Positions 39,780 to 56,978 of a stretch of 64,000 nt of DNA are shown here, in pieces. This DNA comes from a virus. Position 1 is the first letter of the stretch. Every line of letters starts with the position of its first letter. The notes beneath the pieces are model-generated. The model saw nothing but the letters and a program-made list of their open reading frames with translations. It was not told where the DNA came from and ran no database searches. A program made the position numbers and the translations under genes. Location of the stretch: UHGV virus genome UHGV-1366603. One strand, written 5' to 3'.

Positions 39780-40433
39780 ATGGAACCACTACGTTTAATG
39801 ACCAGAACGCTACTGATTCCTATCTGGGAATTGAAGCTTGCCCCATTGCCTGCCTCTAATGGGGAGGTCATTGATTTTATTAAAGACGAAGAATTCGTGT
39901 TGACGGCTTTCCAGGAGACGCTGCATCGTTATTATAATGCAGTGCCTTTATCTGGCGGATTAGATTGCCCTGGTGTAGAAGGGAGTACGTCTGCGTTAAT
40001 TGCAGAGTATTTAGAACAGAAAGGAATCGGGGTTGGGAAAGGTCGGGTTTATGTGGACGTCGATAAACTGAAGAGTTATCAGATTGAGCTGACGTTTCAG
40101 ATAAGAAAATTACTTACTCGCTACGGTCTTTTCTCGATTAACTGTAAGGTTGATGACGTACGGATGTTAGACCACGGTTTTACCACCGCCCTCAAAACTT
40201 GTCGCGGTAAAAGATTCGTACAATTTGCGTGGTGGGTACCAGTATTGCGTGGTGAGAGAAAAACGGTGGAGGGGTTGTACGGCTGGGCGCTATGGAGCGA
40301 AGTTCCAGTAAATAAACTCGATGCGGTTATTCCAAAGCACCGAAACGTTCCGCTTAGCAGTTTATTTACTTCCGGCGAGAACACTACGTGGGCTGAATTC
40401 GTTAATAACGTTATGTCAATTGGGGAACAATGA
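39780..40433 (+). CDS. hypothetical protein (217 aa)
   Basis: AAGGAGAC RBS; first gene of accessory block. Confidence 0.8.
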   Translation: MEPLRLMTRTLLIPIWELKLAPLPASNGEVIDFIKDEEFVLTAFQETLHRYYNAVPLSGGLDCPGVEGSTSALIAEYLEQKGIGVGKGRVYVDVDKLKSYQIELTFQIRKLLTRYGLFSINCKVDDVRMLDHGFTTALKTCRGKRFVQFAWWVPVLRGERKTVEGLYGWALWSEVPVNKLDAVIPKHRNVPLSSLFTSGENTTWAEFVNNVMSIGEQ

Positions 40434-40909
40434 TGCAGCAATTAGATATTACTGAAGACAAAATCTCCGCTAAATTTCCACAATTACGCGAATACATTAA
40501 GGACTTAAACTCGATACGCGAAACACCTGTTCGTATTACGTTAGCGATAGAAGACGATATTACGCACGGTATTGCGATTTGGGAACCGGGCAATCTTATC
40601 TATCTGGTGGTAGCAGAAGGTTCTCGTCGTTTCGGCGTGGGTTCGTTCTTATTGCAGTACGTTCAGTTGAATTCCGATCGTCAAATGGTGACGTGTCGTG
40701 TCCACCCTTCGAACATTGACGGCCTGTGTTTCTTTTCGAAAAAAGGCTACCAGATTGACCGTTGGTATATCGCCAGCGACTCTCGTCGGTATTTTCGTAT
40801 GACGAACGGTAACGTTGTTTCGTCATACGCCCCGCCGGAAGAAGGATATTTGGTGGATTTTATCGAAAACACGCCCATCTTTCTCTCTGTTGCGGATAAA
40901 ATTTATTAA
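40430..40909 (+). CDS. GNAT-family acetyltransferase (159 aa)
   Basis: GNAT motif A-like LVVAEGSRRFGVGSFLL; ATGA coupling to upstream gene. Confidence 0.6.
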   Translation: MMQQLDITEDKISAKFPQLREYIKDLNSIRETPVRITLAIEDDITHGIAIWEPGNLIYLVVAEGSRRFGVGSFLLQYVQLNSDRQMVTCRVHPSNIDGLCFFSKKGYQIDRWYIASDSRRYFRMTNGNVVSSYAPPEEGYLVDFIENTPIFLSVADKIY

Positions 40910-40925
40910 CCGTTGAGAGTCTAAA

Positions 40926-41402
40926 ATGATACGTGTCGAATATGAGACGCGGTGCTTAGAAGACAATCGAGCAAAAGCATTACGTTGTGTTGAAATCGTC
41001 CCCGAACACGAACTGGATATTCAAGCTGGTAAGGTTCGGGGCGTTCCGGTTAAGATCGTACAACATAGCCATTGTTCGCAATATAAAGAGAAAGCTGTCC
41101 CAGTAGTACGTTCCAGTAAACGAGAAGACTTTTCAGAACTCCGTAAGTGTTTTCAACGACACTACCGCCGGAGTAAATGGAAAGTGTTGGTATTAATGTT
41201 AGTCGACGATTTCATTAAAGACCTGGTTTGGGAAGAAGTGCTTAAAGAGCGTGGTTTTCAACCCAAACCGTTCTCGTATCACTGGGAACGTTTCAAAAAG
41301 AAATACCACGAGTCATTGCGTTGGTCTCCGAACACCCGGAATATGATGCCGCGTTTAGAGTCAATGTCTTGGCTTCGTGTTTATCTCGATGAGGTAAACT
41401 GA
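40926..41402 (+). CDS. hypothetical protein (158 aa)
   Basis: ORF; stop overlaps next start. Confidence 0.7.
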   Translation: MIRVEYETRCLEDNRAKALRCVEIVPEHELDIQAGKVRGVPVKIVQHSHCSQYKEKAVPVVRSSKREDFSELRKCFQRHYRRSKWKVLVLMLVDDFIKDLVWEEVLKERGFQPKPFSYHWERFKKKYHESLRWSPNTRNMMPRLESMSWLRVYLDEVN

Positions 41403-41791
41403 TGAAACGTTTTATTACTCCATTTCTAATGTTACTTTCGTTTTCTGTATTAGCGGATTTTAAACCTTACGATATCAGTCGTTACGAACCTGCTGTTCCT
41501 GGCGATAAACCGGTTGTGTTTAAAGCAGACGACCAACCCGTCACTGCGGTTCAAAACGATGAGTTTGCAGTGGTGAATTACGGCAAAACGGACTTATGCC
41601 CTGCGGGTGGATTTTATCTGGTGAACATCAAACGTCGAACTTATCAGTTTGTTGATCCGGGTAGCTGCTCTGCAATGGTTAAGGTGACGTTAGAAACCGT
41701 ACCTTACACGAATAAAAACATTAATATACAACGTTTAACCTTTTATGCGGGTGATGAAATCACAGCACGTTATCCGTTATACGGGTATTAG
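41402..41791 (+). CDS. secreted/periplasmic protein (129 aa) with N-terminal signal peptide
   Basis: MKRFITPFLMLLSFSVLA signal-like N-terminus; two Cys pairs. Confidence 0.7.
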   Translation: MKRFITPFLMLLSFSVLADFKPYDISRYEPAVPGDKPVVFKADDQPVTAVQNDEFAVVNYGKTDLCPAGGFYLVNIKRRTYQFVDPGSCSAMVKVTLETVPYTNKNINIQRLTFYAGDEITARYPLYGY

Positions 41792-41814
41792 TGATTAGCC
41801 CCCACGGAGTTCGT

Positions 41815-42453
41815 ATGTCTTTTGTAATTGATTTCGACGTTGGCCACAGACAGAACTTACTTAATCTCGTTAGTTATTGTAACAGTGACAGTGTACGGAA
41901 AAAGCTTTCGGCTGAAAAGGTAGACGTTACGCTCGTCGGTGCCCCAACACCGGAAGGACGCTATAAGGTAAAGTTAACGAACCGTAACGACATAAACGAT
42001 GCGGTACTGATTACCTACACAAAGCTTCAACTGAACGACTTCCTTGAGATTCCTGCCAAGTATCTGGATTGGTTTGATTTCGAAAACGGTCAACCTAAGA
42101 ACTACGATACGTGGGCAGCTTCCGCTAAAGTCGCTGTAGAGAAAATGTGCCAAGACCGAGGTATGGTGATATCGCGCGCTTGGGACACCGGTTCACAGTG
42201 TCACATTGAGTTTGACGAGTCTATCGAACGCTATGTGGTTGTTTACGAGTGCGACTCTTTTATTTATAGTGCGAGAAACCGATTCATCTTACCTCTACAC
42301 TTAGGGCAGGTGATTAACGACACGACATTAGACGGTCTTGATTACAATAACGAACTGAACAAGAAACCATTGGCGGATTTGGACGGTGAGTTAGAAGTGT
42401 GGATGGGTCAGGCGTTGGTTGAGACAGTCGTCTTAAGCGGCCTGGAAATGTAG
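41815..42453 (+). CDS. hypothetical protein (212 aa; track gives GTG start 41791)
   Basis: ATG preceded by GGAG RBS. Confidence 0.7.
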   Translation: MSFVIDFDVGHRQNLLNLVSYCNSDSVRKKLSAEKVDVTLVGAPTPEGRYKVKLTNRNDINDAVLITYTKLQLNDFLEIPAKYLDWFDFENGQPKNYDTWAASAKVAVEKMCQDRGMVISRAWDTGSQCHIEFDESIERYVVVYECDSFIYSARNRFILPLHLGQVINDTTLDGLDYNNELNKKPLADLDGELEVWMGQALVETVVLSGLEM

Positions 42454-42465
42454 TAGTAACGGTGG

Positions 42466-42506
42466 GTAGAGAGAGCTTTCGGGCTCTCTCTACTTTTCTT
42501 TTTTTT
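42466..42506 (+). terminator. intrinsic terminator
   Basis: GTAGAGAGAGC-TTTCGG-GCTCTCTCTAC followed by T-run. Confidence 0.9.
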
Positions 42507-42535
42507 CATTAACGACGGTCTTTATGGAGGTGACC

Positions 42536-43090
42536 ATGAAAGAATATAAAATCGCGATCATCGGGTCTCGAGAAACACCGGAAGACGTTATGCAGGAAAT
42601 GTTGGAAACGTTACGGGAAGGGTTTCGAATCTTACGAAAGAAAGGCTACACGATTACCACCCGTTCTGGAGGATGTTATAAAGGCCCAGACCAACTTCAG
42701 TTCATGTTAGCACGCACCGAGGACGTTAAGAGCGTTTGTTACCTGCCGGATGAAAAGAAAATGTGGCTAGGGAAAATACACCCTAAAGTAGAGTTCCGTT
42801 ATATCCCACAAGACGTGCAGTACCGAGCAGTTGTTGCTTCACTCCACCCAAACCCAGATAAGCTCTCACCGATTGCCTGGGCGTTACACGGTCGTAATCT
42901 GAATATCATCTCAGGTGACCGTTTAGACGAACCGGTAGACGCAGTGTATTATTTCAGCGACCACGACAAACACGGAAACGCAAAGGGTGGTACTGCGATG
43001 GGTGTAAAATACGCGAAGTCAGTCGACGTTCCTTGTTACTACCATACCGCCGATCGAGATAAGTGGTTGGAAAGTCTTCGTTTATTATGA
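42536..43090 (+). CDS. SLOG/DprA-like Rossmann-fold protein (184 aa)
   Basis: KIAIIGSRE…TITTRSGGCYKGPDQ resembles DprA/Smf and SLOG-family glycine-rich motifs; GGAGGTG RBS. Confidence 0.5.
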   Translation: MKEYKIAIIGSRETPEDVMQEMLETLREGFRILRKKGYTITTRSGGCYKGPDQLQFMLARTEDVKSVCYLPDEKKMWLGKIHPKVEFRYIPQDVQYRAVVASLHPNPDKLSPIAWALHGRNLNIISGDRLDEPVDAVYYFSDHDKHGNAKGGTAMGVKYAKSVDVPCYYHTADRDKWLESLRLL

Positions 43091-43240
43091 ACTTGACTTT
43101 AACCGCTTTACAAAGGGAATCCCGATAAGCGTCGTAGTTGAGTTCAGCGATTCGCCGTGCGATGGGAACAGAAGTTACTGCGTATCCGACAGCAGGGTGA
43201 ACTGGGTAAAAGTAAGATCAAAGCAAACGAGTAAATTATC

Positions 43241-44374
43241 ATGTCAACGTTAGATAGCGACTTAGAAGTGCTTTGTGACGATTACGACCGACTCGTAGCG
43301 TTAGAATCCATTGGAGTAAAAGATAATTATCCGGCTATCGTTGCTATCCGTAAACGTTGGCTTTTGGATGATGTGGTTGTTGCGTCAGAGTCTTCGGCCA
43401 TGATGCACCGCGCACAGTTTTTGTCAGACACGGAACCTGATAAAGGGATAGGCAAAGCGGCTGCGCGACTCACCGGACGTGCTGTTCGTGGCGTCAGTCG
43501 GGTAGCAGGCCGTGCTGCCAGTGCAGGTGCAAAAGCATCAGCGAACTTTGCAGGTAAACATTCCAAACAGCTTGCTTTACGTTTTGTGGACTTTGCTGAG
43601 GCTGCGGGTAAAGAAGTCATTAAGGAATTAAAAGAAGCGACGTCTAAAGCGACGACCTTAGAGCGCAAACTGCAAAAGTTAAATGCACGTCTAAGTTTAA
43701 TCGGTGACAAAGACACCTTAAAACCGGTTGACTGCGACACGGGAAGCTGGACGACCAAAGTTTGTTTAGAAGACAAACCTAATGTAAAAGCGTGTATTGA
43801 GTTCAGTAAGAACCTGAACGCAATGGATGCGATGGTCAACGATTATACCGTTAAAACGCGTACTATTCTCGGTAAGAGTAAGAAAGTTACTGAGAGTGGT
43901 TTGGAGAGAGTAGGTCGGTCAACGAACTGGGCGATTAAACGTAGTGCAGGGTTGTTCGGTATTATCGATCCGTTTAAAACGGTGAAAGCGTATCCGTGGC
44001 CAGGTAACGTGGTGGTCGTTGAACACGACAACGGTAAGATTGAGTGGGCGATTGCCCGTGATGGTGATTTTGGCCACACAATCAAATCTCTGAACTTACA
44101 CGAAATCGGTTCAGCTCTCGAAGCCGTTGAAAAAATTATCCGTGCTTTACGTCAGCGTGGTACGAAGCGTCGTAGTGTTGGTTATACCGGTATTTACGAT
44201 GAAATTCAGCGAATGAAAAAAGAATTGAAATCGTTAGACGGTCGTGAATTACGTGACGCTACCGTTCGGTATAAAAACGCACTGCGTTTAGAAGATGCGT
44301 TTACTACCTCGTTAGTGCGTGTTGCGGAAGGCTTACTGGAATGGTGCAGGTTGTCGCTGATTGAGGTTAAATAA
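43241..44374 (+). CDS. hypothetical protein (377 aa), Ala/Arg-rich N-terminal region
   Basis: ORF; TAATG coupling to downstream GNAT. Confidence 0.75.
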   Translation: MSTLDSDLEVLCDDYDRLVALESIGVKDNYPAIVAIRKRWLLDDVVVASESSAMMHRAQFLSDTEPDKGIGKAAARLTGRAVRGVSRVAGRAASAGAKASANFAGKHSKQLALRFVDFAEAAGKEVIKELKEATSKATTLERKLQKLNARLSLIGDKDTLKPVDCDTGSWTTKVCLEDKPNVKACIEFSKNLNAMDAMVNDYTVKTRTILGKSKKVTESGLERVGRSTNWAIKRSAGLFGIIDPFKTVKAYPWPGNVVVVEHDNGKIEWAIARDGDFGHTIKSLNLHEIGSALEAVEKIIRALRQRGTKRRSVGYTGIYDEIQRMKKELKSLDGRELRDATVRYKNALRLEDAFTTSLVRVAEGLLEWCRLSLIEVK

Positions 44375-44841
44375 TGCGTATCACTATTATTCTCAAACCC
44401 GACAGTAAATACGGAAAGTTATACGGCGACCAGGTACTCAAACTGCACAACATGTTGTTCGCAGAAGAGAAAGTGCGTATTAGTCAGTTAACTGGACGTG
44501 ACACGTTCAACCCCATCGAACGTTTAGAAGAGATTTGGCCTCAAGATTATCTCTGTGCTTGTGCGGTGGGTGACAACGAACAGCTTCTGGGATTTATGAC
44601 GTTCTCATTGGGTTCTTGCTCAAAAGACACGTTTGTTTACATCGGGAATTACTATGTGATTCCTGAAGCACGCTCTCAAGGGGTAGGGCGTGCGCTTATG
44701 GACAAAGTCCGTGAATACGGAAAGTCTAAAGGTTGTGGTTGGATGAGTCTGGATGTGTTAGACAACAACGTTAAAGCTATCTCCTTGTATGAGAAAATGG
44801 GATTCCGTACCGAATGCAGGGAAATGATAAAGGAAATCTAA
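44374..44841 (+). CDS. GNAT-family N-acetyltransferase (155 aa)
   Basis: Classic GNAT motifs YVIPEARSQGVGRALMDKV and AISLYEKMGF. Confidence 0.8.
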   Translation: MRITIILKPDSKYGKLYGDQVLKLHNMLFAEEKVRISQLTGRDTFNPIERLEEIWPQDYLCACAVGDNEQLLGFMTFSLGSCSKDTFVYIGNYYVIPEARSQGVGRALMDKVREYGKSKGCGWMSLDVLDNNVKAISLYEKMGFRTECREMIKEI

Positions 44842-44842: not shown

Positions 44843-45475
44843 ATGGCTGCAAGATTCGTACCGTTTCATGACGGGTCTAGATATACTTTTGGTGTAGAGC
44901 GTTACGCTGTGGGTTTTCGTCCTGGTTGGAGAGTGGTACGAATCGATAAAGCGTGTTGGTGTTTACCGACCGGCATTTTTGATTACTTTACGCCTGAAGC
45001 TTTAACGCGGTTTGTTTCTCTGGGTTCTCCCACGCAACGTGCTGCGTGGGAAAAGAATATTCGTTGCCGTTATTTGGGTAAAACACGAAACGCGACGGTA
45101 CGCGGTGTTTATCACGTAGGAAGCCGTTGGTTACACGTTGAGCCAACACATCTCCGTTGTGCCGTCACGCCCTTTAACGGTGAATATCGCGGTCAGGTGT
45201 ACACTGGGTTACATTTTGCGTTCCCGGATAACCCTGACCTTAATTATTTTCTGGCTACCCCGAAAGACGTTACATTAGCCACGTTCTATAAATACCTTTT
45301 GTTCTATCCTGCGTACGTCGTTGCAGAATACGAACACAAAGCATTTCCTCTACCTTACGGTAGAGACAGGAGATTAGCAGGATGTTCTATCGAGAACTTC
45401 AGCAATACACCGACGCTCTCCGAAAAGCGACCATTGATGCTCACAACAACCTCAGAGATGTCGTTAGCGTTATAG
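44843..45475 (+). CDS. hypothetical protein (210 aa)
   Basis: ORF beginning 2 nt after GNAT stop; 3' end overlaps next ORF by 94 nt. Confidence 0.6.
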   Translation: MAARFVPFHDGSRYTFGVERYAVGFRPGWRVVRIDKACWCLPTGIFDYFTPEALTRFVSLGSPTQRAAWEKNIRCRYLGKTRNATVRGVYHVGSRWLHVEPTHLRCAVTPFNGEYRGQVYTGLHFAFPDNPDLNYFLATPKDVTLATFYKYLLFYPAYVVAEYEHKAFPLPYGRDRRLAGCSIENFSNTPTLSEKRPLMLTTTSEMSLAL

Positions 45476-45753
45476 AACAGTGTTCGGATGTATTGTATGC
45501 GGAAACGATTGAAACGCCAACCCGCGACGGTGTGAAATCGCTCCAGCTACACGTTTGTAGTAAACACGGCAGTCTGTCGTTAAACTTCCGTGTAGGTTTA
45601 GATTATTACATGGTTCGTAAGAGCTATTTAAGTTGTGACGGTGACCTCTATCCGGTTGTCTGGAACAACGATTATTCTAAGTTTGTTTATCCACTTGAAG
45701 AACACCGACGCACGGTTTATGAATTTGTGAAAGCTGTTCTCGAGGGGTTCTAA
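45382..45753 (+). CDS. hypothetical protein (123 aa)
   Basis: ORF with AGGAG RBS. Confidence 0.6.
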   Translation: MFYRELQQYTDALRKATIDAHNNLRDVVSVIEQCSDVLYAETIETPTRDGVKSLQLHVCSKHGSLSLNFRVGLDYYMVRKSYLSCDGDLYPVVWNNDYSKFVYPLEEHRRTVYEFVKAVLEGF

Positions 45754-45766
45754 AGAGGGTATTGTG

Positions 45767-46372
45767 ATGTCAGAGATGATTCTCGACTCATTACTGCTGA
45801 TTACGGTGGCGTATATCAACAAAACCGGTAAGCTACCAAAGCGTGGGGTGACGATTGAACGGGAGGGGTTTAAGCACCGCTACCCGTTAACGAAAGTTCT
45901 CGATTTGGCAGCGCGGTTAGCGAAGATGCGTAGACCGACGTCAGACGCAGCACCGAAGTACGTCTTAGTGGTACTCCAACGTGCGATTTCTGAAGTCCGT
46001 CGTGCGCGTCGTCGTGCCTCGTTTCGCTTTTATCCAAACTCTACGCAACAGGTTGTGGGGGTCTATAACGAAATGGTTGTTGATTTACGTGCCGAACGCT
46101 GTAACGTTACAGGACTTGCGTATAACCGCCTCAAACGCATTCTGGACGACTCAGACGCGTTTACCACACCGCAAGAAGGTCAAGCGGCTTTAGCGCTTCT
46201 ACGAGGCGCTGAGCTCGTTATTGTGGACACCGCAGTACAGGCCGCAAGAATGCAGCACTATCTTGCTAAGCAAGGGTTAGTTTTACTGTGTGTACCGTCT
46301 GCACAGACTGCTAATCTTACCGCACCGGAAACGTCAGAAGTGTGGAGTGGTCCGATTGTTGACCATCAATAA
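45767..46372 (+). CDS. hypothetical protein (201 aa)
   Basis: ATG after AGAGGG RBS (track GTG 45764). Confidence 0.7.
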   Translation: MSEMILDSLLLITVAYINKTGKLPKRGVTIEREGFKHRYPLTKVLDLAARLAKMRRPTSDAAPKYVLVVLQRAISEVRRARRRASFRFYPNSTQQVVGVYNEMVVDLRAERCNVTGLAYNRLKRILDDSDAFTTPQEGQAALALLRGAELVIVDTAVQAARMQHYLAKQGLVLLCVPSAQTANLTAPETSEVWSGPIVDHQ

Positions 46373-46379: not shown

Positions 46380-46416
46380 CCCCTACCTATCGGTAGGGGC
46401 GGGTTTCTTTTTTATC
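46380..46416 (+). terminator. intrinsic terminator
   Basis: CCCCTACC-TATCG-GGTAGGGG then T-run. Confidence 0.85.
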
Positions 46417-46510
46417 CTAAAATTTATTACAACCAATAGCTATTATGTGAACGCCGGTATGGAATAAAGAAGTATCGGTTTAAATTTTTGTGCGTAAAGG
46501 TAAAACGATA

Positions 46511-47134
46511 ATGCTTAAGACAGTGTCTATTGATGGCCCTGACTTTTCTGGGAAATCGACGTTGTGCAAAATGGTAAAAGGTATGCTGGAATCTGCGGGG
46601 TTAAAGGTCTGCATCCGTAATCACCCTACGACGGAGACCGAAGCGGGTATCCGCGCACGCAGTTTAGTCATTCAGTCCGCAGCAAAAGCAAAAATTGCCG
46701 AAGCGATGTGCGACGATTTCCTCCACACGTTAGACCATGTTGTTGACGATTACGATGTTGTTATTTTCGACAGGTTCTGTCCCTCTACAGTCGTTTACCA
46801 GGGTGTCGACGGTAAAGACGAAGTTTTCCGACGTAAGCTAACGCGTCATTTCCACGCACCAGATTTGTACGTTTGGACAGATGTGGATTACGACGGCGCA
46901 GTAGCACGCTTTAAGAAACGGGTAGAAGAACAAGGTAAGAATTGGGACGATGAGGTTCTTACCGTTAAGTATTTAAAAGACAACCAAAGTTGGGAAGCGT
47001 TACGTGACCACTACCGCTTCGCCCACCACATTCTCACTGAAGGCGGTTGTCTACACCATTTATTACCCGTGAAGCAAGACGACGATTACCGGTTAAAAGC
47101 GGCTGAAATCGTTGCTTGTATTTTAGAGAATTAA
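46511..47134 (+). CDS. tmk: thymidylate (dNMP) kinase-like P-loop kinase
   Basis: P-loop GPDFSGKST and DRF.PSTVVYQG matching E. coli Tmk DRH.LSTQAYQG (from memory); start set at ATG 46511 (track GTG 46490). Confidence 0.75.
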   Translation: MLKTVSIDGPDFSGKSTLCKMVKGMLESAGLKVCIRNHPTTETEAGIRARSLVIQSAAKAKIAEAMCDDFLHTLDHVVDDYDVVIFDRFCPSTVVYQGVDGKDEVFRRKLTRHFHAPDLYVWTDVDYDGAVARFKKRVEEQGKNWDDEVLTVKYLKDNQSWEALRDHYRFAHHILTEGGCLHHLLPVKQDDDYRLKAAEIVACILEN

Positions 47135-47141: not shown

Positions 47142-47176
47142 CCCCTACCTTCGGGTAGGGGGTTATTTAATTTTTT
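47142..47176 (+). terminator. intrinsic terminator (UUCG tetraloop)
   Basis: CCCCTACC-TTCG-GGTAGGGG then T-run; same stem as terminator 46380. Confidence 0.85.
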
Positions 47177-47206
47177 CTCAGATAGATATTACCTTAGTGA
47201 GATTAC
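47177..47206 (+). promoter_or_regulatory. promoter-like motif copy 2 (CTCAGATAGATATTACCTTAGTGAGATTAC)
   Basis: Identical 30-mer to 12323-12352; same 46-nt spacing to ATG and similar leader. Confidence 0.55.
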
Positions 47207-47252
47207 ACAATAACCTCTTTACGACTTGTTCTACAGATTAGGATTAATTACC

Positions 47253-47612: not shown

Positions 47613-47633
47613 CCAACCTAAAGGAGTAATATC

Positions 47634-49390: not shown

Positions 49391-50198
49391 ACCAATTATA
49401 AAGTGGATGGGTGGTAAATCACGGATTATCGACACCTTACTACAAGTCTTACCTGAACGTACAACATTCGTTGAACCGTTTGTTGGTGCAGGGTCGGTGT
49501 TTTTGAACACACGTTATAAACGTTACATTCTTGCTGACTCTAACCCCGATTTAATACAGTTGCTGAATGTGGCGAAAGACCAACCTGAAGAACTTATCTT
49601 AAAGTCGAAACCACTATTCGAAGACGGTAACGATTGTATTAAGTATATGGAACGCCGTGAGTTGTTTAATCGCGAAACGGATATGGCTCCGTTAGACCGG
49701 GCAGCAATGTTTCTGTACTTAATGCGTCACGGTTTTAACGGGATGTGTCGTTACAACGGCAGCGGGGGTTTTAACGTTCCGTTTGGTCGCTATCCTAACG
49801 GTGTGTATTACCCGTTAGACGAGATTCGTGGTTGGGCTAAACGTTGTCAAGAACCGGAATACTTAGAAATTGTTTGTGAAGATTTCCGAACAGTTTTAGA
49901 GCGTACACCGGAAGAGAGTGTGATTTACGCAGACCCGCCTTATATACCGCTCTCAGAGACCGCTAAACACGCCCAATACCATCGGAAGGAGTTTTCCCAG
50001 GCTGACCATCGAGAACTCGCCAGAGCGCTGTTTAAGCAGGTTGAGAGGGGGAATAGCGTTGTGTTGTCCAATGCAGATACGTTACTAACGCGTGAGATTT
50101 ATTACGGGTTCGAATGGCGTTCTGTGGAAGTAGGGCGATACATGGGTGCGTCAGGTGCTGCCCGTAAAACGGTAACGGAATTGTTAGGAGTGCTCTAA
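49383..50198 (+). CDS. dam: DNA adenine methyltransferase (Dam, GATC N6-adenine MTase)
   Basis: IKWMGGKSR, VEPFVGAGSVFLNT, YILADSNPDLI, FNGMCRYNG.GGFNVPFGRY, DPPYIPLS, all matching E. coli Dam from memory. Confidence 0.9.
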   Translation: MHKPIIKWMGGKSRIIDTLLQVLPERTTFVEPFVGAGSVFLNTRYKRYILADSNPDLIQLLNVAKDQPEELILKSKPLFEDGNDCIKYMERRELFNRETDMAPLDRAAMFLYLMRHGFNGMCRYNGSGGFNVPFGRYPNGVYYPLDEIRGWAKRCQEPEYLEIVCEDFRTVLERTPEESVIYADPPYIPLSETAKHAQYHRKEFSQADHRELARALFKQVERGNSVVLSNADTLLTREIYYGFEWRSVEVGRYMGASGAARKTVTELLGVL

Positions 50199-50971
50199 TG
50201 CGTATAGTGGATATCCACGATTATCGTAATGACCATTTAGCGATTGGTGTCGATGGGAAAATGGTTTCGTTAACCCGCGTACGCAAAGGGTTAATGGAAA
50301 AGGAGATCATTCGGGAGTCCGAAGACCCTACCTTTATCATCCTTTCGAACACTAATCAGTTACAGGGCATCTTTTCAGGGCGTGCTGACGGTAAGATTTT
50401 CTATATGTCCGCAATCGTTGTGTTTGCGAAGAAGAACATTAACTTCGCCCAACTCAAACGTTTGTTAAACGTGAAGATGTTTGATGTCACCTACCCTGCT
50501 AATGACCTAAAACGTCGTGATCAGTTAATGACGTTTTTAGGTATGCAACCAACGTCTATCGATTACGACCTTACGATTACTGAGAAGCCGGAAGTGCGCA
50601 CTGACTTACCTGACGTAGACGATGTTGAATCCTTAACGTTAGAAGAGACGTTTACGATTCCTAAGGTTGTTAATGTCAACCTGGACACGCATTGTTTAGG
50701 GTTGTTAGCCGTAGGTGCAGCAGAAGGGTTGTGTTGTCGTAAAGACGGTAAGGTTGAAGGTATCTTAGTCTATTCGAAAATCAACGAAAAGACGTTTGCC
50801 ACTGAAGGCTTTTTCTATAACGATTGCACTTACGGAAACGCACTACTAACCACGTATTTCCGTATTGCTTATCTGAAAGGCGCAACTGTACGCCTCACGT
50901 TTCCATACACAGCCCCACCGTCTATGGGTGGAGTTGAGGTAGAACCATTAACCGGCCACTTTATCTTTTAA
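50198..50971 (+). CDS. hypothetical protein (257 aa)
   Basis: TAATG coupling to Dam. Confidence 0.75.
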   Translation: MRIVDIHDYRNDHLAIGVDGKMVSLTRVRKGLMEKEIIRESEDPTFIILSNTNQLQGIFSGRADGKIFYMSAIVVFAKKNINFAQLKRLLNVKMFDVTYPANDLKRRDQLMTFLGMQPTSIDYDLTITEKPEVRTDLPDVDDVESLTLEETFTIPKVVNVNLDTHCLGLLAVGAAEGLCCRKDGKVEGILVYSKINEKTFATEGFFYNDCTYGNALLTTYFRIAYLKGATVRLTFPYTAPPSMGGVEVEPLTGHFIF

Positions 50972-50980: not shown

Positions 50981-51208
50981 ATGGAAATCAAACGTATTGT
51001 AACCAAAAACAAACAGATTGTTTACGTCGCAGGCGATAACGAATTCTCGGCGGTAATCAACAGCGAAAATGCGCTCATTATCGGTTATCCGGGTAAAGTT
51101 ATTACGCGCAGTCACCAACGTGTGATTGACAAACTTATCGCAAAAGCGAAAGCGCGTGACGGTGTTGGTTCAGTACAAACCCACACGGGGTTAACGCTGG
51201 CCCTCTAG
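50981..51208 (+). CDS. hypothetical protein (75 aa)
   Basis: ORF with AAGGA RBS. Confidence 0.6.
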   Translation: MEIKRIVTKNKQIVYVAGDNEFSAVINSENALIIGYPGKVITRSHQRVIDKLIAKAKARDGVGSVQTHTGLTLAL

Positions 51209-51247: not shown

Positions 51248-51754
51248 ATGAGTGAGACTCTGGATTTTAATCAGCTCGAACAACACGATTTCGACCTCGG
51301 TGTTCGTGATATCGATGCTGATCATGAAACACGTTGTAAAGAGCTGTTTAACCGTTACGGTCAGCTCATCACCGGTGCCTCTGACGACACCGAATTCAGT
51401 TTAGATGAGTTTGAAAAAGTTCTGTCGTGTTTTATCACTGACTGTCTGGCGAAGAAAGCGTTGCTGGTCGAACTGAACTTAGACTCCGTCGAACCTACTG
51501 ATGCTCACGCCGTGTTGAAAGAGTCCATTATCCCAACTGATGAGATTATGGACACGGTAGCCGGTATTCGCGGTACGTTTGAAACTGCCGTAGAAGAATA
51601 CACGGAACAGCTTCGTGAATCAGGACTGACGTTGTGTGCGCCAGCAGGTGAGCCATTACCGTCCGACGAAGAAACTGAAGAAGCGCGTAGTCGCTTAGCG
51701 CGTTATGTTATTACGTCTATCTTGGTAGATGATCGCGAAGAGAATCTGCTATAA
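51248..51754 (+). CDS. strongly acidic protein (168 aa), candidate DNA mimic
   Basis: GGAGACTT RBS; very high Asp/Glu content. Confidence 0.7.
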   Translation: MSETLDFNQLEQHDFDLGVRDIDADHETRCKELFNRYGQLITGASDDTEFSLDEFEKVLSCFITDCLAKKALLVELNLDSVEPTDAHAVLKESIIPTDEIMDTVAGIRGTFETAVEEYTEQLRESGLTLCAPAGEPLPSDEETEEARSRLARYVITSILVDDREENLL

Positions 51755-51757: not shown

Positions 51758-51797
51758 GCCCCTCTCTCCGTTTGGAGAGAGGGTGTATTTATTTTTA
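51758..51797 (+). terminator. intrinsic terminator
   Basis: GCCCCTCTCTCC-GTTT-GGAGAGAGGG then T-rich tail. Confidence 0.85.
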
Positions 51798-51852
51798 CGC
51801 GTATAGCCGTAGTTATGCACAAGTAAACAAAATTAATTGAGGAAACAATCTG

Positions 51853-52170
51853 ATGTGGTTAAGTGCTATTCACCGTGATTTGCCAAAACGTGACGTGTCG
51901 TTTACTGTTGAGGACGCACCGATTGAGGTAGGCGTCGCTAAATTCGAAAGAATCGAAGAAGGGCAGTTTGTTGTAATGGATGGCAACGACAACGAATTTA
52001 TGTTGTATCATCCAGAAGTGGATACCTCTGAAATTTGTGACGGTGTTCTTTTGTTGTCCTGGCAAAACCAAGAAACTAAAGAATGGATGTGGTGTGTTGC
52101 TAAACCGACAAATGAAGCTGGAACCGCATACGTGTTTGGGGAAATTTATGTCGAACCCGAGCCACACTAA
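51853..52170 (+). CDS. hypothetical protein (105 aa)
   Basis: ORF with GAGGA RBS. Confidence 0.7.
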   Translation: MWLSAIHRDLPKRDVSFTVEDAPIEVGVAKFERIEEGQFVVMDGNDNEFMLYHPEVDTSEICDGVLLLSWQNQETKEWMWCVAKPTNEAGTAYVFGEIYVEPEPH

Positions 52171-52217
52171 TTTCGATATAGCTTCAGCATTGTGTTGTTA
52201 ATGGTCTAAAAAATTTA

Positions 52218-52248
52218 AGATATATTTCATCTATGTGAGAATTCTCAC
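52218..52248 (+). promoter_or_regulatory. promoter-like element with perfect 14-bp palindrome GTGAGAATTCTCAC (52235-52248)
   Basis: AGATATAT… then TGTGAGAATTCTCAC; 24 nt upstream of ATG 52272. Confidence 0.45.
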
Positions 52249-52271: not shown

Positions 52272-52541
52272 ATGGCTAAGATTTACATTGTTGAGAAACG
52301 TGCGGGTAATGTTCTTTCCTATTACGAAGAAGGTAAACCTGAAAAAGTTAAAACACTCAAACTCGACGGGTATGAAGTGAAGAGTTTACGCAAAGGTGTG
52401 AAGATTACCTTTAAAGGTTTGGCTCGCGTAAATAACTTACACATTGTTAAGGCCGATGGTACGATGGCTGCGTTAGCGCCTGTCAGTGCTGCGAAAACGA
52501 CAGCCGGTCGTGGCTGCTACGGTAGCAGTCGTAAGATTTAA
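52272..52541 (+). CDS. small basic protein (89 aa), monocistronic unit
   Basis: TGGAG RBS; promoter-like element before and terminator after. Confidence 0.7.
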   Translation: MAKIYIVEKRAGNVLSYYEEGKPEKVKTLKLDGYEVKSLRKGVKITFKGLARVNNLHIVKADGTMAALAPVSAAKTTAGRGCYGSSRKI

Positions 52542-52546
52542 GCAGT

Positions 52547-52588
52547 GCCCCTCTCTCCTAACGGAGAGAGGGTACTTTTATTTTTCTT
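52547..52588 (+). terminator. intrinsic terminator
   Basis: GCCCCTCTCTCC-TAAC-GGAGAGAGGG then T-rich tail; stem identical to terminator 51758. Confidence 0.85.
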
Positions 52589-52599: not shown

Positions 52600-53088
52600 A
52601 TGACAACGGTATTAGTAACAAAGGATTACATTTTAGCTGACCGACTTGTGGACTATGCTGGCACAGTTAAAGAATTGCCCAAACTACATAAACACAAAAA
52701 CAAGTTTGTTTTCTACACTGGGGAACGTGTACTGGACACCGAGTTTTGGAAAATATCAATGACCGCTGTTATAGAAAAATATTTAGACGTGGATAAACGC
52801 AAGGAAGTTGAGCCTTTGCTTGTGGATTTTTTCGAAAAAGAGCGAATATTCGATCAGATTGTCATTTTTACGGCTAGAAAAACTCATTGGCTCACATTAG
52901 TAGCAGGTAAGTTTGAAGATCTTGTAATAAATGAAAATGCGGTTTGGGCAACGGGTTCTGGTGGAGGTTTTGCACGGGCTGCTTGGGCGACAGGAATATC
53001 AGAAAAGAAAATTATGCCGTTGGTAGGTTCTATTGATCCGTCTAGCTCGACCACCTATGACTTGTTTTACAGGAAGAGTTTACGATGA
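52600..53088 (+). CDS. HslV/proteasome-beta-like Ntn-hydrolase peptidase candidate (162 aa)
   Basis: Start set at ATG after GAGGTG RBS (track ORF 52486 runs through the terminator); N-terminus MTT…; ENAVWATGSGGGFARAAWATG resembles HslV [21 protein letters not shown]. Confidence 0.5.
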   Translation: MTTVLVTKDYILADRLVDYAGTVKELPKLHKHKNKFVFYTGERVLDTEFWKISMTAVIEKYLDVDKRKEVEPLLVDFFEKERIFDQIVIFTARKTHWLTLVAGKFEDLVINENAVWATGSGGGFARAAWATGISEKKIMPLVGSIDPSSSTTYDLFYRKSLR

Positions 53089-53606
53089 AAATAAATGCGG
53101 TTTTAATTGGCGATGAAATATTCGTGAATACAAAAACACAATATTTGTGTTACGAAGGTATTACTGTAATAGATGAGTATTACGGTAAATACGGTTGGTG
53201 GATTCCATCCCCTAATTCTTTACGATTAGAAGAAGCTTTAACTGCTGAAGAGAACAAACTGGATGATGAATGGACTTATATTAGCTCTGTAATTGATGTT
53301 AGCGGACGAATTAAAGACGTCTACTGGGCTAAAGGTATAGGGTGGCGTGTTACGCTACATCAAGCCACACCGGTAAGATTGTTGTACGACCACACTGACA
53401 CTTCGGAGTTAGCGTTTACCATTGAGACGCTCTCGGTGCGTAAAGATTTAGATAACGTAGGTAAAGGGAAGTGGTCGATTGAACGTATAGAGGAAATTCT
53501 CAGTCACTTTAAAGCCAACAACCAATTTAAACGTTGGTGTACGCTACCTGAGTTAGTAGAAGAGTTGAAAAAGCGGGATTGCAAGCCGCTACCTTTTAAT
53601 CCGTAA
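53085..53606 (+). CDS. hypothetical protein (173 aa), translationally coupled to HslV-like gene
   Basis: ATGA overlap. Confidence 0.7.
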   Translation: MKINAVLIGDEIFVNTKTQYLCYEGITVIDEYYGKYGWWIPSPNSLRLEEALTAEENKLDDEWTYISSVIDVSGRIKDVYWAKGIGWRVTLHQATPVRLLYDHTDTSELAFTIETLSVRKDLDNVGKGKWSIERIEEILSHFKANNQFKRWCTLPELVEELKKRDCKPLPFNP

Positions 53607-53650: not shown

Positions 53651-54046
53651 ATGACAGCAATACTAGGTGTAATGGCAAGAAAAGCCGACATCGTTGAAAC
53701 GTTTATTGAACAATACAACAACTCGCCGTATACGCGTTTTAGATTACATAAACCGAAGAATAGTACAGAATGGGTTCGTTGGTTCAGGATTTGGGATAAA
53801 ACAATAAGTAAAATTGATCCGTTATTTAGAATAACGGTTGAACCAGCTTATTGGATTGTAATGGAAATTTCGCTATTACGTATTATCGAAAAACGTCCGA
53901 TTGACACTATGACGATGTTTGGGAAAGATACGTATAAAATGTTGACCAACGGTTTTGTGGGTAATGGGGAACACACGTTGTATCAAGCGATGCTGGAAAT
54001 GTGTTTGTTCGATTTAGTTACTTACGAATTGGGGATTTCAAAATGA
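53651..54046 (+). CDS. hypothetical protein (131 aa)
   Basis: TAGGAGAAT RBS. Confidence 0.7.
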   Translation: MTAILGVMARKADIVETFIEQYNNSPYTRFRLHKPKNSTEWVRWFRIWDKTISKIDPLFRITVEPAYWIVMEISLLRIIEKRPIDTMTMFGKDTYKMLTNGFVGNGEHTLYQAMLEMCLFDLVTYELGISK

Positions 54047-54507
54047 ATTGCTTCGAATCTAAAGAAATTGTTGAGTTGTTTAAGCAGCGTGAGAAAACAA
54101 CATTCCGTGACCTGTACGATTCCGATTACCGTCCTCTGTTTGCGGTATTGTTGAAACTGGATAAAGAACCCGAAATCGCACTAGCAGAGGTTCAGCATCA
54201 TCACATCAGTTTCGTGTTAACTGAAAACAAGGAACGTTGGGTAGATGACATACTGGGTCGTATTGCGCTTTTGGAAACACCGCATCGTTGGGAAGTGGTT
54301 ATTCAGAAATCACTCTTCCCGCGTGAAGACATTTTCAACAACTATCGTCCGAAACAGTATTACAACCACGACGGGTCGCCAAAACGTGCTTTCCTGGCAC
54401 CACAACACTTCGTAACCTACGTAACGTTGCGTTACAAAGACACCGTGGTGCCGTTTGACACCTACCTGGAAATGCGTGAGATAATCTTAGGGAAGAATCC
54501 GTCATGA
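54043..54507 (+). CDS. hypothetical protein (154 aa)
   Basis: ATG overlapping previous stop (ATGA); track ORF 54001 over-extends. Confidence 0.65.
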   Translation: MNCFESKEIVELFKQREKTTFRDLYDSDYRPLFAVLLKLDKEPEIALAEVQHHHISFVLTENKERWVDDILGRIALLETPHRWEVVIQKSLFPREDIFNNYRPKQYYNHDGSPKRAFLAPQHFVTYVTLRYKDTVVPFDTYLEMREIILGKNPS

Positions 54508-54986
54508 TTCAATTTTCTGTTGACTCAGAAAGACTGGCGTCATTTAAAGAGCGTGCTCAGACTGCAATCAAAAACGGTTACATTGAGAAAGGTGTTCGTG
54601 ATACTTGTAAACTAATCAACGGCCATCCGCACCTGGCGACAATGTGGAGCTGTGAAGGTCACGGTATGTATTCTAAATCGCCGGGAAACTTGCATATTGT
54701 TTTTGCAACAGATGGTATCGGAAGCCAGCTTCCAATGCAGATTATGTCCGAACTTGCAAAAAGCGATCTGCCCAATTTCTGGAATCTTAGTTTGTGTCGT
54801 CTTTATATACCGGACGCATACACGGATTTGGTATATCTTGAACCTGACTATGGGTTAAACACCGACGACACGTCTTACTGGTCTTGGAAAATCGGATACA
54901 TGTGCTTGATTAATCGTCCGGCATTAATTGAGGCACGACAGGCTCTTTATAAAGCATTTCACACAGTATTAGTTGAGAATAAATAA
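54504..54986 (+). CDS. hypothetical protein (160 aa)
   Basis: ATGA coupling. Confidence 0.7.
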   Translation: MIQFSVDSERLASFKERAQTAIKNGYIEKGVRDTCKLINGHPHLATMWSCEGHGMYSKSPGNLHIVFATDGIGSQLPMQIMSELAKSDLPNFWNLSLCRLYIPDAYTDLVYLEPDYGLNTDDTSYWSWKIGYMCLINRPALIEARQALYKAFHTVLVENK

Positions 54987-55678
54987 TGGCTACCAAACAA
55001 AAGAAACCTCGTAACAAAAAGTATAACCCGAAAGCAGCTGCTAACCGTACTGCACACACCATTGCTGAAAATGCGTTAAACCGCATTACTTTCGTCGGTA
55101 GCTCAATTCGTCCTATCGGTCCGTACGCAGGTCGTGGTTTCCAGTTTACAACGTCGCCGCGTATGCGCATGGCAGCGACCGATATGTTAATCGGTGGTCT
55201 GTTTGACGAACCACGTAACTGGAAGTTATGGGTTGCGCATCTGTACGAAACGGATAATGGTGTACAGGCAGAAACCGTCGTGGCCACGCTTGACGATTAC
55301 ACGTTAAGTGATTTCTGTCAACACGGCGACAAAATCATCAAGTCGCTACGTGAGACAGAAGAAAACTACTTCGGTTACGCTTTCGTTGCTGCGCCTAACG
55401 AACGCTATGATTTCGACCAGGGAGAAGAACGTTTACTGGAAAACTTCATGCATTCTGGACTGTTAGACAAATCCTTACACTTACCTGAAGAAGAACTGAT
55501 GGTTTCGCGTAAGGATATGGTAACGTTGCTGTTAGCCGACCGTGGTCGTTTTGATATCACCGAGCCGCATGTGCGTAAAGTACAGAAACTCGTGGATAAA
55601 GTAGACGAAACTGACCTGGACACTAATGAAGTCGCAACACGTATTCAAAGTGTAGTAAACCAGATTGAGGATTACTAA
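54986..55678 (+). CDS. hypothetical protein (230 aa), basic N-terminus
   Basis: TAATG coupling. Confidence 0.75.
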   Translation: MATKQKKPRNKKYNPKAAANRTAHTIAENALNRITFVGSSIRPIGPYAGRGFQFTTSPRMRMAATDMLIGGLFDEPRNWKLWVAHLYETDNGVQAETVVATLDDYTLSDFCQHGDKIIKSLRETEENYFGYAFVAAPNERYDFDQGEERLLENFMHSGLLDKSLHLPEEELMVSRKDMVTLLLADRGRFDITEPHVRKVQKLVDKVDETDLDTNEVATRIQSVVNQIEDY

Positions 55679-55680
55679 AC

Positions 55681-56211
55681 GTGATAGCACGACTTGTGAG
55701 TTGGTTTAAGCAATGTCGTGCAAAGGCGGTCGAATGGCCGCCTATTACGCATGACGAGAAAGTGGCTCTTTTTTTGAGATATAACAAAGACTTGAAGAGA
55801 TTAGGTGGATTAATGCGCTTAACGGAACGTCAGGTTTTTGCTAAGATTTCGAGCAGCGAGTTGCGTAAAGAAGTAATTCCACACCTATCCTTTTTAGGGC
55901 AGGTTTATGCAATTACGACAGAGGAATTTTTATCAACCCAAGGTAGCGAACGGCCACATATTCGGTTTTCCGTCGTAGGTGAACCTGATACGGTAGGTGA
56001 AATCGATTTTAAGATGCTGTATCGCAGAATAAAAGATGATGGGTTTATACATGTTAAACGATTATCAGAAACTTCTGTGGTGATTTATCATCGCACTGAT
56101 CAGGATTTGTTAGGGTGCGTTATAAGGCTAACAAATTTACGTAGTTTTTACGTTGATTTACTTACAGACTTTTATCCGGAACCTTGGTGTTTTATAGATG
56201 AAAATAAATGA
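55681..56211 (+). CDS. hypothetical protein (176 aa)
   Basis: Apparent GTG start after GAGGA RBS. Confidence 0.6.
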   Translation: MIARLVSWFKQCRAKAVEWPPITHDEKVALFLRYNKDLKRLGGLMRLTERQVFAKISSSELRKEVIPHLSFLGQVYAITTEEFLSTQGSERPHIRFSVVGEPDTVGEIDFKMLYRRIKDDGFIHVKRLSETSVVIYHRTDQDLLGCVIRLTNLRSFYVDLLTDFYPEPWCFIDENK

Positions 56212-56410
56212 CGGATATATCATTTCAGCAATCGTTTCAACTGCGTTGATTGTAGCGATGTTGATGTTCTACGTTAAGACGTCTGACGAATCACGTAGAG
56301 ACTCCCTTTATCGTGAATGTATGTCAGGCACTACTGTAGATAATCCACGCTACGCTGAATTAGTAATGGCGTGTACGGAATACGCTAATCGAATGGGAGG
56401 AGGGAAATGA
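56198..56410 (+). CDS. small membrane-anchored protein (70 aa), paralog of next gene
   Basis: N-terminal hydrophobic helix; LYREC…AELVMAC motif shared with 56407 gene. Confidence 0.6.
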   Translation: MKINDGYIISAIVSTALIVAMLMFYVKTSDESRRDSLYRECMSGTTVDNPRYAELVMACTEYANRMGGGK

Positions 56411-56604
56411 AAATTTGGTTGCCGATTCTAGTTTTTATCGTTATTGCAGGGGCACTCGCAAGTGCTGAGTTAGATAGCCGTACTTTAGAAACGAAACGTG
56501 AATTGTACCAGGACTGTATAAAGGATTACACACCGGGTACAGAGCTTCATGCACAGGCTGTAAAAAGCTGTGCGTTGATGGCTGAATCGCAGACTCGCTC
56601 CTAA
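56407..56604 (+). CDS. small signal-peptide/membrane-anchored protein (65 aa), paralog of previous gene
   Basis: GGAGGG RBS; MKIWLPILVFIVIAGALASA; LYQDC…AQAVKSC motif. Confidence 0.65.
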   Translation: MKIWLPILVFIVIAGALASAELDSRTLETKRELYQDCIKDYTPGTELHAQAVKSCALMAESQTRS

Positions 56605-56978
56605 TGCGTATCTGGACGCTACAACTCGCTAAGTGGCGGTTAGCTAAGCAGAAAGGATTTCACGCAGTGGATATCACTGTGAAGTCAGGTCGAAAGGAAC
56701 TCGCCCCCGACTGGGATTTCCTAATGGCGTATAAATCTTCTGCCAAGGACGCTGCCGCTGAACGTGAGTACACGATAAAGTATTTGTACAAACTCGAACG
56801 ACTGTTAGATACTGATGCCGAAGTTTTAGTGTCATTACTCAGACACGATGACTTGGTTTTGATGTGTTACTGTCCCGTAGGTAAGTTTTGTCATCGTCAC
56901 CTACTGGCGAACAAACTTCAAGAAGTAGGAATGATGTTCGGTATCGACGTTGCGTTGTGTGGAGAATTAACCGAATGA
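56604..56978 (+). CDS. DUF488-like protein (124 aa)
   Basis: LVLMCYCPVGKFCHRHLLA resembles the conserved C.C…CHR motif of DUF488/YeaO-type proteins (from memory). Confidence 0.5.
   Translation: MRIWTLQLAKWRLAKQKGFHAVDITVKSGRKELAPDWDFLMAYKSSAKDAAAEREYTIKYLYKLERLLDTDAEVLVSLLRHDDLVLMCYCPVGKFCHRHLLANKLQEVGMMFGIDVALCGELTE

Follow-up and report, generated by a model that had tools for sequence, protein, structure and literature searches.

A mid-genome block of an SPN3US-like jumbo phage is probably a local version of the gp87–gp120 module

We analysed a 64,000-nucleotide stretch of the virus genome UHGV-1366603 (the window), with a focus on a block of small plus-strand genes at positions 39780–56978. 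The original prediction, made from the letters of this strand, had regarded the block as a candidate island for host takeover or counter-defence. Our comparison indicates, with a probability of roughly 0.7, that it is instead the local version of the mid-genome module that spans gp87–gp120 in Salmonella phage SPN3US and combines minor capsid-internal proteins, DNA and nucleotide enzymes, one early unit and lineage cassettes. This module is common to the nucleus-forming (phiKZ-related) Seoul-like jumbo phages of Enterobacteriaceae and Erwiniaceae. Its backbone would be inherited vertically as a collinear series of about eight terminator-delimited transcription units, most of them presumably transcribed from TATG-type promoters by the non-virion polymerase, and lineage-specific cassettes would have been inserted at the unit boundaries.

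Collinearity with the SPN3US module

By homology, the window belongs to an SPN3US-like jumbo phage of the Seoul-like, phiKZ-related kind. The 377-amino-acid product of the gene at 43241–44374 gave tblastn matches in 62 jumbo phages, the best of which was to SPN3US (59%), while a megablast search of the whole block against 50,697 phage records yielded no near-identical genome. The close relatives are four IMG/VR contigs (150–225 kb long; nucleotide identity 81–98%). To these we added the matching intervals from seven phages (SPN3US, SPAsTU, pEa_SNUABM_29, phiEaH2, Asesino, Wellington and Huxley), which belong to at least four named genera with Seoulvirus, Erskinevirus, Wellingtonvirus and Machinavirus represented, and synteny was assessed by tblastn of every window gene against the seven intervals. 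The SPN3US reference interval was gp87–gp121 (JN641803, 85.6–105.7 kb). Proteins of the lineage (P0010, P0021, P0037 and P0056; relatives of the products of 47634 and 52600) were located on contigs of about 224 kb in NCBI assemblies of Salmonella enterica serovars and E. coli, in agreement with the reported persistence in bacterial isolates of Seoul-like jumbo phages, which encode chimallin (bioRxiv 10.1101/2024.12.31.630880).

The block contains 31 plus-strand genes for proteins of 65–377 amino acids (Table 1). As the original prediction stated, these are mostly coupled: 16 of the 30 gene junctions overlap or are at most 3 nucleotides apart and 20 are at most 25 nucleotides apart, with nine intergenic gaps of at least 40 nucleotides. 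For 23 of the 31 genes, SPN3US has homologues whose coordinates increase strictly along gp87–gp120, and 17 genes were present in all seven relatives. Most of the open reading frames (ORFs) match PHROGs over their full length. The likeness to SPN3US gp87–gp121 and to the Erskinevirus, Wellingtonvirus and Machinavirus phages of Erwinia extends to the position between portal/virion genes and tail genes, the strand, the order of the 23 genes and the terminator and promoter-like punctuation, and the shared genes include three GNAT acetyltransferases, a DprA-like protein, a phiKZ_IP protein, a Tmk-like kinase, a helix-turn-helix (HTH) regulator, Dam and a DUF488 protein. Scans of the window for tRNA genes and Rfam families found nothing.

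The flanks agree with the predicted location between head and tail genes. Upstream, the homology spans SPN3US gp75–gp86 and includes the major capsid protein (gp75), the portal (gp81) and the virion proteins gp82–gp84; downstream are homologues of the tail-associated gp122–gp124. Directly upstream of the block, 38466–39110 encodes a RuvC-like protein (annotation from phage Wellington) with a poly-Arg C-terminus, orthologous to gp85, and 39113–39691 encodes a membrane protein orthologous to gp86. Since gp85 and gp86 are not among the listed SPN3US virion proteins, the non-structural run may begin at 38466 rather than at 39780.

Despite the conserved order, amino-acid identity to SPN3US is only 24–67% within the block compared with 36–84% for the flanking genes, and most flanking structural genes exceed 60%. 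Twelve of the 35 SPN3US interval genes have no counterpart here (gp93, 99, 102, 103, 107, 111, 113, 116–119 and 121, although gp103 may have diverged beyond recognition). Conversely, eight block genes have no counterpart in SPN3US, namely a two-gene HslV-like cassette and six lineage-restricted genes.

Table 1. Features of the block and its boundaries. Coordinates refer to the window; percentages are amino-acid identities and E-values follow the PHROG or Pfam entry. GNAT, acetyltransferase family; Ntn, N-terminal nucleophile.
Position	Strand	Feature	Evidence or remark
39696–39719	+	Intrinsic terminator	Ends upstream gp86-like unit
After 39696–39719	+	TTTTAC–N–ACTGTGAGA promoter-like element
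39725–39760, 46415–46450, 48352–48380, 51793–51818, 52205–52240		TATG-type elements	Same positions in loci L002–L008
39780–40433	+	gp87-like protein, 217 aa, fast-evolving	26% to SPN3US, collinear; PHROG 8034 9e-10; no PDB relative
40430–40909	+	GNAT acetyltransferase, gp88-like	PHROG 7861 'acetyltransferase' 1.6e-67; in all 7 relatives
40926–41402	+	gp89-like basic protein	PHROG 9187 1.5e-67; in all 7 relatives
41402–41791	+	gp90-like protein, N-terminal signal peptide MKRFITPFLMLLSFSVLA|D	By inspection; PHROG 5248; in all 7 relatives
41791–42453	+	gp91-like protein	41%, 95% coverage to gp91 (low-copy head protein)
42464–42495	+	Intrinsic terminator, 14-bp stem	Terminator scan
42524–43090	+	DprA/SLOG-like protein, gp92-like	PHROG 768 'DprA-like' 5.9e-41; in all 7 relatives
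43091–43240	.	Non-coding spacer, indel hot spot	blastn gap and ORF in U078609/U095954
43241–44374	+	phiKZ_IP-family internal head protein, gp94-like, largest gene (377 aa)	Pfam, PHROG, SPN3US homology
44374–44841	+	GNAT acetyltransferase, gp95-like	Pfam 64.5 bits; motif RSQGVG
44843–45475	+	gp96-like protein	PHROG 9255 1.8e-60; in all 7 relatives
45382–45753	+	gp97-like protein	44%, 100% coverage; gp97 is a head protein in SPN3US
45764–46372	+	gp98-like basic protein	57%, 100% coverage; gp98 in SPN3US virion mass spectrometry
46380–46489	+	Terminator, then indel hot spot and promoter-like element	Terminator scan, relatives' comparison
Within 46380–46489	+	TTATTAC–N–TATGTGA promoter-like element
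46490–47134	+	Thymidylate-kinase-like P-loop kinase, gp100-like	Pfam 61.2 bits, above cut-off 27
47142–47161	+	Intrinsic terminator	Terminator scan
47178–47202	+	Early-type promoter-like element TCAGATAGATATTACCTTAGTGAGA, 25 nt	Upstream of HTH gene
47253–47612	+	Cro/C1-type HTH regulator, gp101-like	Pfam HTH_26, HTH_3; PHROG 7126 1.2e-31
47634–48317	+	Hypervariable 227-aa protein, position of SPN3US gp103	Relatives' comparison
48330–48347	+	Intrinsic terminator	Terminator scan
48404–49390	+	Two-domain protein, C-terminal GNAT, gp104-like, fast-evolving	Pfam 44.3 bits; motif RGRGIG; 29% to gp104
49383–50198	+	Dam-family N6-adenine DNA methyltransferase, orphan, gp105-like	Pfam, TIGR00571, PADLOC
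50198–50971	+	gp106-like protein, very divergent	PHROG 9941 1.1e-27; 20–24% to relatives
50981–51208	+	gp108-like small basic protein	PHROG 7896; in all 7 relatives
51248–51754	+	Very acidic protein, gp109-like	Isoelectric point 4.15, net charge −26
51760–51783	+	Intrinsic terminator	Terminator scan
After 51760–51783	+	TTTTTAC–N–TTATGCA promoter-like element
51853–52170	+	gp110-like acidic protein	PHROG 9789 2.1e-40; in all 7 relatives
52272–52541	+	gp112-like small basic protein	PHROG 12339
52549–52572	+	Intrinsic terminator	Terminator scan
52600–53088	+	HslV-like candidate Ntn peptidase	GC 0.40; PHROG 1040 2e-7
53085–53606	+	Partner gene of HslV-like cassette	34% to Huxley gp126, neighbour of gp125
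53651–54046, 54043–54507	+	Two lineage-restricted genes	No phage-database homologue; dN/dS 0.03–0.19
54504–54986, 54986–55678	+	gp114-like and gp115-like proteins	PHROG 7413, 6965
55681–56604	+	Three lineage-restricted genes (176, 70, 65 aa)	At position of SPN3US gp116–119
56604–56978	+	DUF488-N3a protein, gp120-like	Pfam PF22751 47 bits, above cut-off 27; in all 7 relatives
56979–57070	+	Indel hot spot, then terminator hairpin	Relatives' comparison, terminator scan

Terminators and promoter-like elements

Repeated terminators had been predicted to cut the block, and eight strong plus-strand intrinsic terminators (hairpin followed by a T-run) were indeed located in intergenic gaps, at 39696, 42464, 46380, 47142, 48330, 51760, 52549 and 57043. 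Between 38.5 and 58.4 kb there are 30 terminator-like sites, compared with 18.4 ± 4.0 in shuffled sequences. Because the longest HslV-like ORF contains the terminator at 52549, the start of that gene is most likely at 52600; corrected starts are likewise likely for the HTH gene (47253) and for the ORFan near the HslV-like gene (54043).

Two types of promoter-like elements punctuate the block. The first, TCAGATAGATATTACCTTAGTGAGA, occurs in exact copies at 12324 and 47178, with none expected by chance, and variants at 20578–20606 and 26836–26860 bring the number of copies in the window to four, with the consensus tCAGATAkATATTACyTAgGTGAGA. It is kept upstream of the HTH gene in the seven relatives, across several genera, and within the block it is found only ahead of the unit formed by the HTH gene and the adjacent gene for a 227-amino-acid protein. 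AT-rich, highly conserved motifs mark the early promoters of jumbo phages that have RNA polymerases of their own (PMC7598289), and the element at 47178 was read as an early-type promoter for this reason. A literal literature search for the phiKZ early-promoter word yielded unrelated papers only.

The second element, TTTTTAC–N14-17–(T/A)ATGTGA(A/C), is situated directly 3' of terminators and ahead of the gp87-, gp100-, gp104- and gp110-like genes, an arrangement conserved across genera. The element includes the TATG by which phiKZ late promoters are defined (PMC7598289) and, by analogy, possibly represents the non-virion-polymerase promoter class of these phages. Host-type promoters are no feature of this region since there are fewer sigma-70 sites than in shuffled sequences (26 versus 31.4). 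In the hairpin at 57043–57070, ahead of the gp122-like gene, the loop contains TATG(T/G)G, which is conserved in SPN3US, SPAsTU, pEa_SNUABM_29 and Asesino (L002, L003, L004 and L006), and a terminator and a start-site motif may therefore be superimposed here.

Plasticity and selection

Comparison with the four close relatives revealed indels the size of a gene at five sites, and mosaic segments besides these. At 43140–43202 the window lacks a paralogue of the internal head protein (294 amino acids, 33% identical to the product of 43241) that is carried by the two nearest relatives, and at 46431–46490 it lacks a gene for 204 amino acids found in two of the four. Missing as well are a gp111-like gene at 52171–52196 and, at 56980–57044, a gp117-like prohead-protease paralogue of about 150 amino acids that is found in two close relatives. 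Conversely, 53651–54046 is missing from one close relative. For the HslV-like gene, identity is 70–72% to relatives with about 97% identity elsewhere, yet 90% to a more distant one, a pattern that indicates mosaic exchange. The indels and mosaic segments sit at transcription-unit boundaries, and the GC content of the variable genes (0.37–0.42) is lower than that of the block (0.44) or the window (0.46). The block is more plastic than the flanking structural genes.

Six genes had no homologue in the 50,697 phage records. That these ORFs are not genes was ruled out, as all six are kept in the four IMG/VR relatives with ratios of nonsynonymous to synonymous substitutions (dN/dS) of 0.03–0.28. For all 31 genes the dN/dS values were 0.02–0.33, compared with 0.01–0.10 for head genes, which indicates that every gene of the block is real and functional under purifying selection, with less constraint than on the head genes.

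Some of this is what would be expected of an accessory island of dispensable, often exchanged and early-expressed genes for host takeover or counter-defence. The five indel sites, the six genes unmatched in phage records, the lower GC content of the variable cassettes, an identity to SPN3US below that of the flanks and the twenty products with no PDB sequence relative all fit that description, and so do the orphan Dam methylase, the three GNATs and a hypervariable gene in an early-type unit beside an HTH regulator, which is reminiscent of acr–aca operons. However, 17 genes are collinear and conserved in all seven relatives, six genes are orthologous to genes for virion proteins, the early-type element is found on only one of about eight units and dN/dS is below 0.35 throughout. 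No similarity to characterised anti-defence proteins beyond the orphan Dam was detected in searches of Pfam, PHROG, NCBIfam, PADLOC and PDB, which did not include a dedicated anti-defence library. An island of this kind is thus unlikely, and the term is overstated since the block is mostly backbone, orthologues that are virion proteins exist for a fifth of its genes and the orphan Dam is its only recognisable anti-defence function. The original prediction described the block accurately; what stands of its interpretation is a variable minority of genes together with Dam: gene content does differ among related phages, at the five indel sites and at the hypervariable gene, and the block is neither invariant nor composed solely of virion and replication proteins.

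The interpretation as a conserved SPN3US-type module also has points that weigh against it. With twelve SPN3US genes absent here and eight local genes absent there, it describes the backbone and not the whole block. About 20 products are without functional clue, in line with the remark in the original prediction that most of the block's genes have no assignable function, and a sequence search of PDB (E ≤ 0.1) gave no match for 20 products of the block. Packaging into the head is extrapolated from SPN3US orthologues that are only 41–60% identical. Lastly, the temporal class of the TATG-type element is taken from phiKZ only, and a relaxed, generic search of the window for the pattern was too unspecific to map the promoter class.

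Capsid-linked genes

Six SPN3US proteins encoded in the interval (gp91, gp94, gp95, gp97, gp98 and gp109) were identified in purified virions by mass spectrometry, and gp91, gp94, gp97 and gp109 were labelled 'Head' (Ali et al. 2017; PMC5694885, Supplementary Table 1). Their orthologues in the window, at 41791, 43241, 44374, 45382, 45764 and 51248, are presumably packaged into the head as well. They would form a low-copy, capsid-internal set that consists of the gp91-like protein, the phiKZ_IP head protein with a protease-cleavable N-terminus, the coupled GNAT, the gp97- and gp98-like proteins and the acidic gp109-like protein.

The gene for the phiKZ_IP head protein at 43241 had not been recognised in the original prediction. 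Its product scores above the gathering cut-off for PF12699 (phiKZ_IP; 29.7 bits versus 27, E 5e-7), matches PHROG 2497 'internal head protein' (7.8e-74) and is about 59–60% identical to SPN3US gp94. Like the phiKZ inner-body and internal head proteins of this family, it has a conserved N-terminus with A-x-E motifs: the first 55 or so residues are highly conserved among gp94 homologues, and ALE-22 and an A-x-E near position 50 (ASE-50 in the window protein) are invariant. These fit the A-x-E motif at which the prohead protease of SPN3US cleaves, and gp94 itself was annotated as 'Head, could be processed AME-60' (PMC5694885), with the possible cleavage noted again in a later study (PMC10052503).

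This protein is distinct from the SPN3US ejection proteins gp53 and gp54, which are very abundant with N-termini identical to each other (PMC5694885) and are present in more than 600 copies, whereas gp94 is a low-copy protein with an abundance index (SC/M) of 0.84, near that of the portal. Paralogous ORFs at 9633–10904 and 10954–12243 in the window have the common N-terminus MANFAKTRAARESMEA and are the counterparts of gp53/gp54; their products show no BLASTP similarity (E below 0.01) to the 377-amino-acid protein.

The GNAT gene at 44374 overlaps the stop codon of the head-protein gene with its start, and the two genes are adjacent in every one of the seven relatives. In SPN3US the SC/M values of gp94 and gp95 are nearly the same (0.84 and 0.85), compared with 0.93 for the portal (PMC5694885). 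We infer that the GNAT, bound to the head protein, may enter the capsid with it. Among PDB entries, the closest relatives of the GNAT are diamine, nourseothricin and polyamine acetyltransferases (E 5e-10 to 1e-6). The product of 51248, which had been proposed as an acidic candidate DNA mimic, is indeed very acidic and had no sequence relative in PDB; its SPN3US orthologue gp109 is a mid-abundance 'Head' protein (SC/M 2.26, 93% sequence coverage; PMC5694885).

The position between head and tail genes, the six orthologues found in virions and the TATG-type promoter-like elements would also suit a head-morphogenesis extension, in which the block provides assembly factors and minor head components and the GNATs and the peptidase act on capsid proteins rather than on the host. 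The corresponding interval in relatives moreover holds a prohead-protease paralogue (gp117; PMC5694885) and an HslV-like peptidase. Yet a part in morphogenesis is not obvious for Dam, the Tmk-like kinase, the DprA-like protein or the HTH regulator, and several genes come and go among near-identical relatives, which is unexpected for assembly factors. The text of the SPN3US essential-gene paper gave no match to gp87, gp94, gp95, gp104, gp117 or gp119, the six that were looked up of gp87–gp121. We regard such a specialisation of the whole block as improbable, and prefer the mixed gp87–gp120 module with a capsid-internal subset.

Effectors that are packaged in the capsid and injected are represented in other phages by T4 Alt and IPI* and by the P1 Dar proteins. 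The GNAT and the small acidic protein resemble these in that they have in-capsid orthologues and, by analogy, could reach the cell with the DNA; in sequence, the window proteins are unrelated to these effectors. Packaging would suit a very early action in the host, by a mechanism different from that envisaged in the original prediction: the phiKZ_IP-family protein would carry in the GNAT, which would act in the first seconds of infection, ahead of any phage gene expression. It is a speculative and rather doubtful proposal that the head-protein–GNAT pair and the gp109-like protein are capsid-delivered effector cargo and, separately, that the product of 47634–48317 is an arms-race factor against host defence or rival nucleus-forming phages that co-occur with it in the same hosts.

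Enzymes and other conserved domains

The DNA and nucleotide enzymes of the module would be an orphan Dam methylase, a Tmk-like kinase and a DprA/SLOG-like protein. Dam, which had been predicted, is of the D12 class and was identified at 49383 by Pfam (2.5e-56, 191.7 bits) and by NCBIfam TIGR00571 (253.9 bits, cut-off 114.85), the FVGAGS and DPPY motifs were seen by eye, and the best PADLOC model was 'orphan MTase' (2e-85). Despite the presence of this gene, GATC is under-represented, with 112 sites in the window versus 277.7 expected (observed/expected 0.40; 0.33 in the block).

The three predicted GNATs were all recovered. Those at 44374 and 48404 exceed the Pfam threshold; the one at 40430 is below it (Acetyltransf_7, 16.9 bits, cut-off 27) and was assigned from its PHROG match and an R-x-x-G-x-G acetyl-CoA motif, RRFGVG, seen by eye. 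None of the three reached an NCBIfam equivalog cut-off. The DUF488-like assignment likewise holds at 56604.

Three further assignments of the original prediction come with qualifications. The gene at 46490 is best described as encoding a Tmk-like P-loop kinase, since the Pfam Thymidylate_kin match is above the cut-off and spans profile positions 1–143 of 185, while the score for the dTMP kinase equivalog TIGR00041 of NCBIfam is below the cut-off (52.3 versus 83.25 bits). The product of 42524 may be DprA/SLOG-like according to its PHROG match, with no match in Pfam, NCBIfam or PDB sequence searches. The product of 52600 is a tentative candidate for an HslV-like peptidase in view of its PHROG match and the residues that are invariant in the family, M1-T2-T3, D14, K28 and G119/G121 (Gly-x-Gly); searches of Pfam, NCBIfam and PDB sequences, including phmmer and a profile search against PDB, gave no match, and the AlphaFold2 model is weak, with a predicted local distance difference test (pLDDT) score of 64.5.

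Outside this lineage, the HslV-like cassette (52600–53606) was found only in Erwinia phages of the Machinavirus/Derbicusvirus type (L008 31562–36271; L017 and L018). These phages have a gene with an HslU domain a few kb from the cassette; neither the window nor the loci of the four close relatives contained an HslU homologue. Outside the block, the ORF at 13949–14485, downstream of an early-type element, looks like dihydrofolate reductase by eye (…GKDNKLPWHIPDDLKNFKALT…VMGRKTWESLG…).

The HTH unit and its hypervariable neighbour

The early-promoter unit would consist of the HTH regulator, for which the predicted assignment was confirmed by Pfam and PHROG, and the hypervariable 227-amino-acid protein encoded at 47634. 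The latter is 38–39% identical in two relatives in which the neighbouring genes are 88–90% identical, with the divergence spread over its whole length. It had no homologue in the 50,697 phage records, and only 11 protein clusters were related to it, all of the same lineage and none with a Pfam domain. The AlphaFold model is usable (pLDDT 74.5, predicted template modelling score 0.74), with 30 disordered, Lys-rich residues at the N-terminus, and resembles no solved structure. A Foldseek search of viral models (BFVD) gave one significant match, to a protein of 215 amino acids (E 8.6e-6, template modelling score 0.55, 14% identity), and weaker matches to similar-sized proteins from Erwinia jumbo phages. 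The comparison with SPN3US gp103 gave an hhalign probability of 1.2%, and BLASTP likewise gave no clear match. The position and the modelled fold are compatible with a very fast-evolving positional orthologue of gp103.

In acr–aca operons, anti-defence genes are associated with an HTH regulator, and the HTH gene is last. The unit at 47178–48317 is similar in that a small HTH protein is encoded behind a strong conserved promoter and next to a hypervariable gene whose function has no assignment. It differs in that the HTH gene is first, the variable protein matches no known anti-defence protein and the promoter is the general early-type element of the phage, with three further sites in the window.

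Other genes of the block

The secreted protein of the original prediction corresponds to the gene at 41402, whose signal peptide was predicted by inspection only. Paralogous small membrane proteins had also been proposed; the 70- and 65-amino-acid proteins encoded in 56198–56604 each have an N-terminal hydrophobic segment and two cysteines, although their paralogy is weak (BLASTP E 0.07). A small ORF at about 20650–20800, after an early-type element, begins with MISVKHKKAIFAVVIAVVLGCLYLD… and has an N-terminal membrane segment and a Cys-containing tail, an architecture like that of these two proteins by eye. The remaining genes are listed in Table 1.

Implications

Among isolates of Salmonella and E. 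coli, Seoul-like jumbo phages are widespread; they are also candidate agents for phage therapy, and yet most of their genes are of unknown function. By itself, the block reveals no new kind of system and is largely an ordinary genome module. Mapping onto SPN3US separates a conserved backbone, which is partly capsid-packaged and includes an acetyltransferase, from a small set of variable genes and from the regulatory punctuation. The genes to be considered for counter-defence or takeover are thereby reduced from some 31 to a handful of testable ones: Dam, the HslV-like cassette, the hypervariable gene beside the HTH regulator and, on the capsid side, the acidic head protein and the pair of head protein and GNAT. 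Besides Dam, these are reasonable if hypothetical candidates for host-directed functions.

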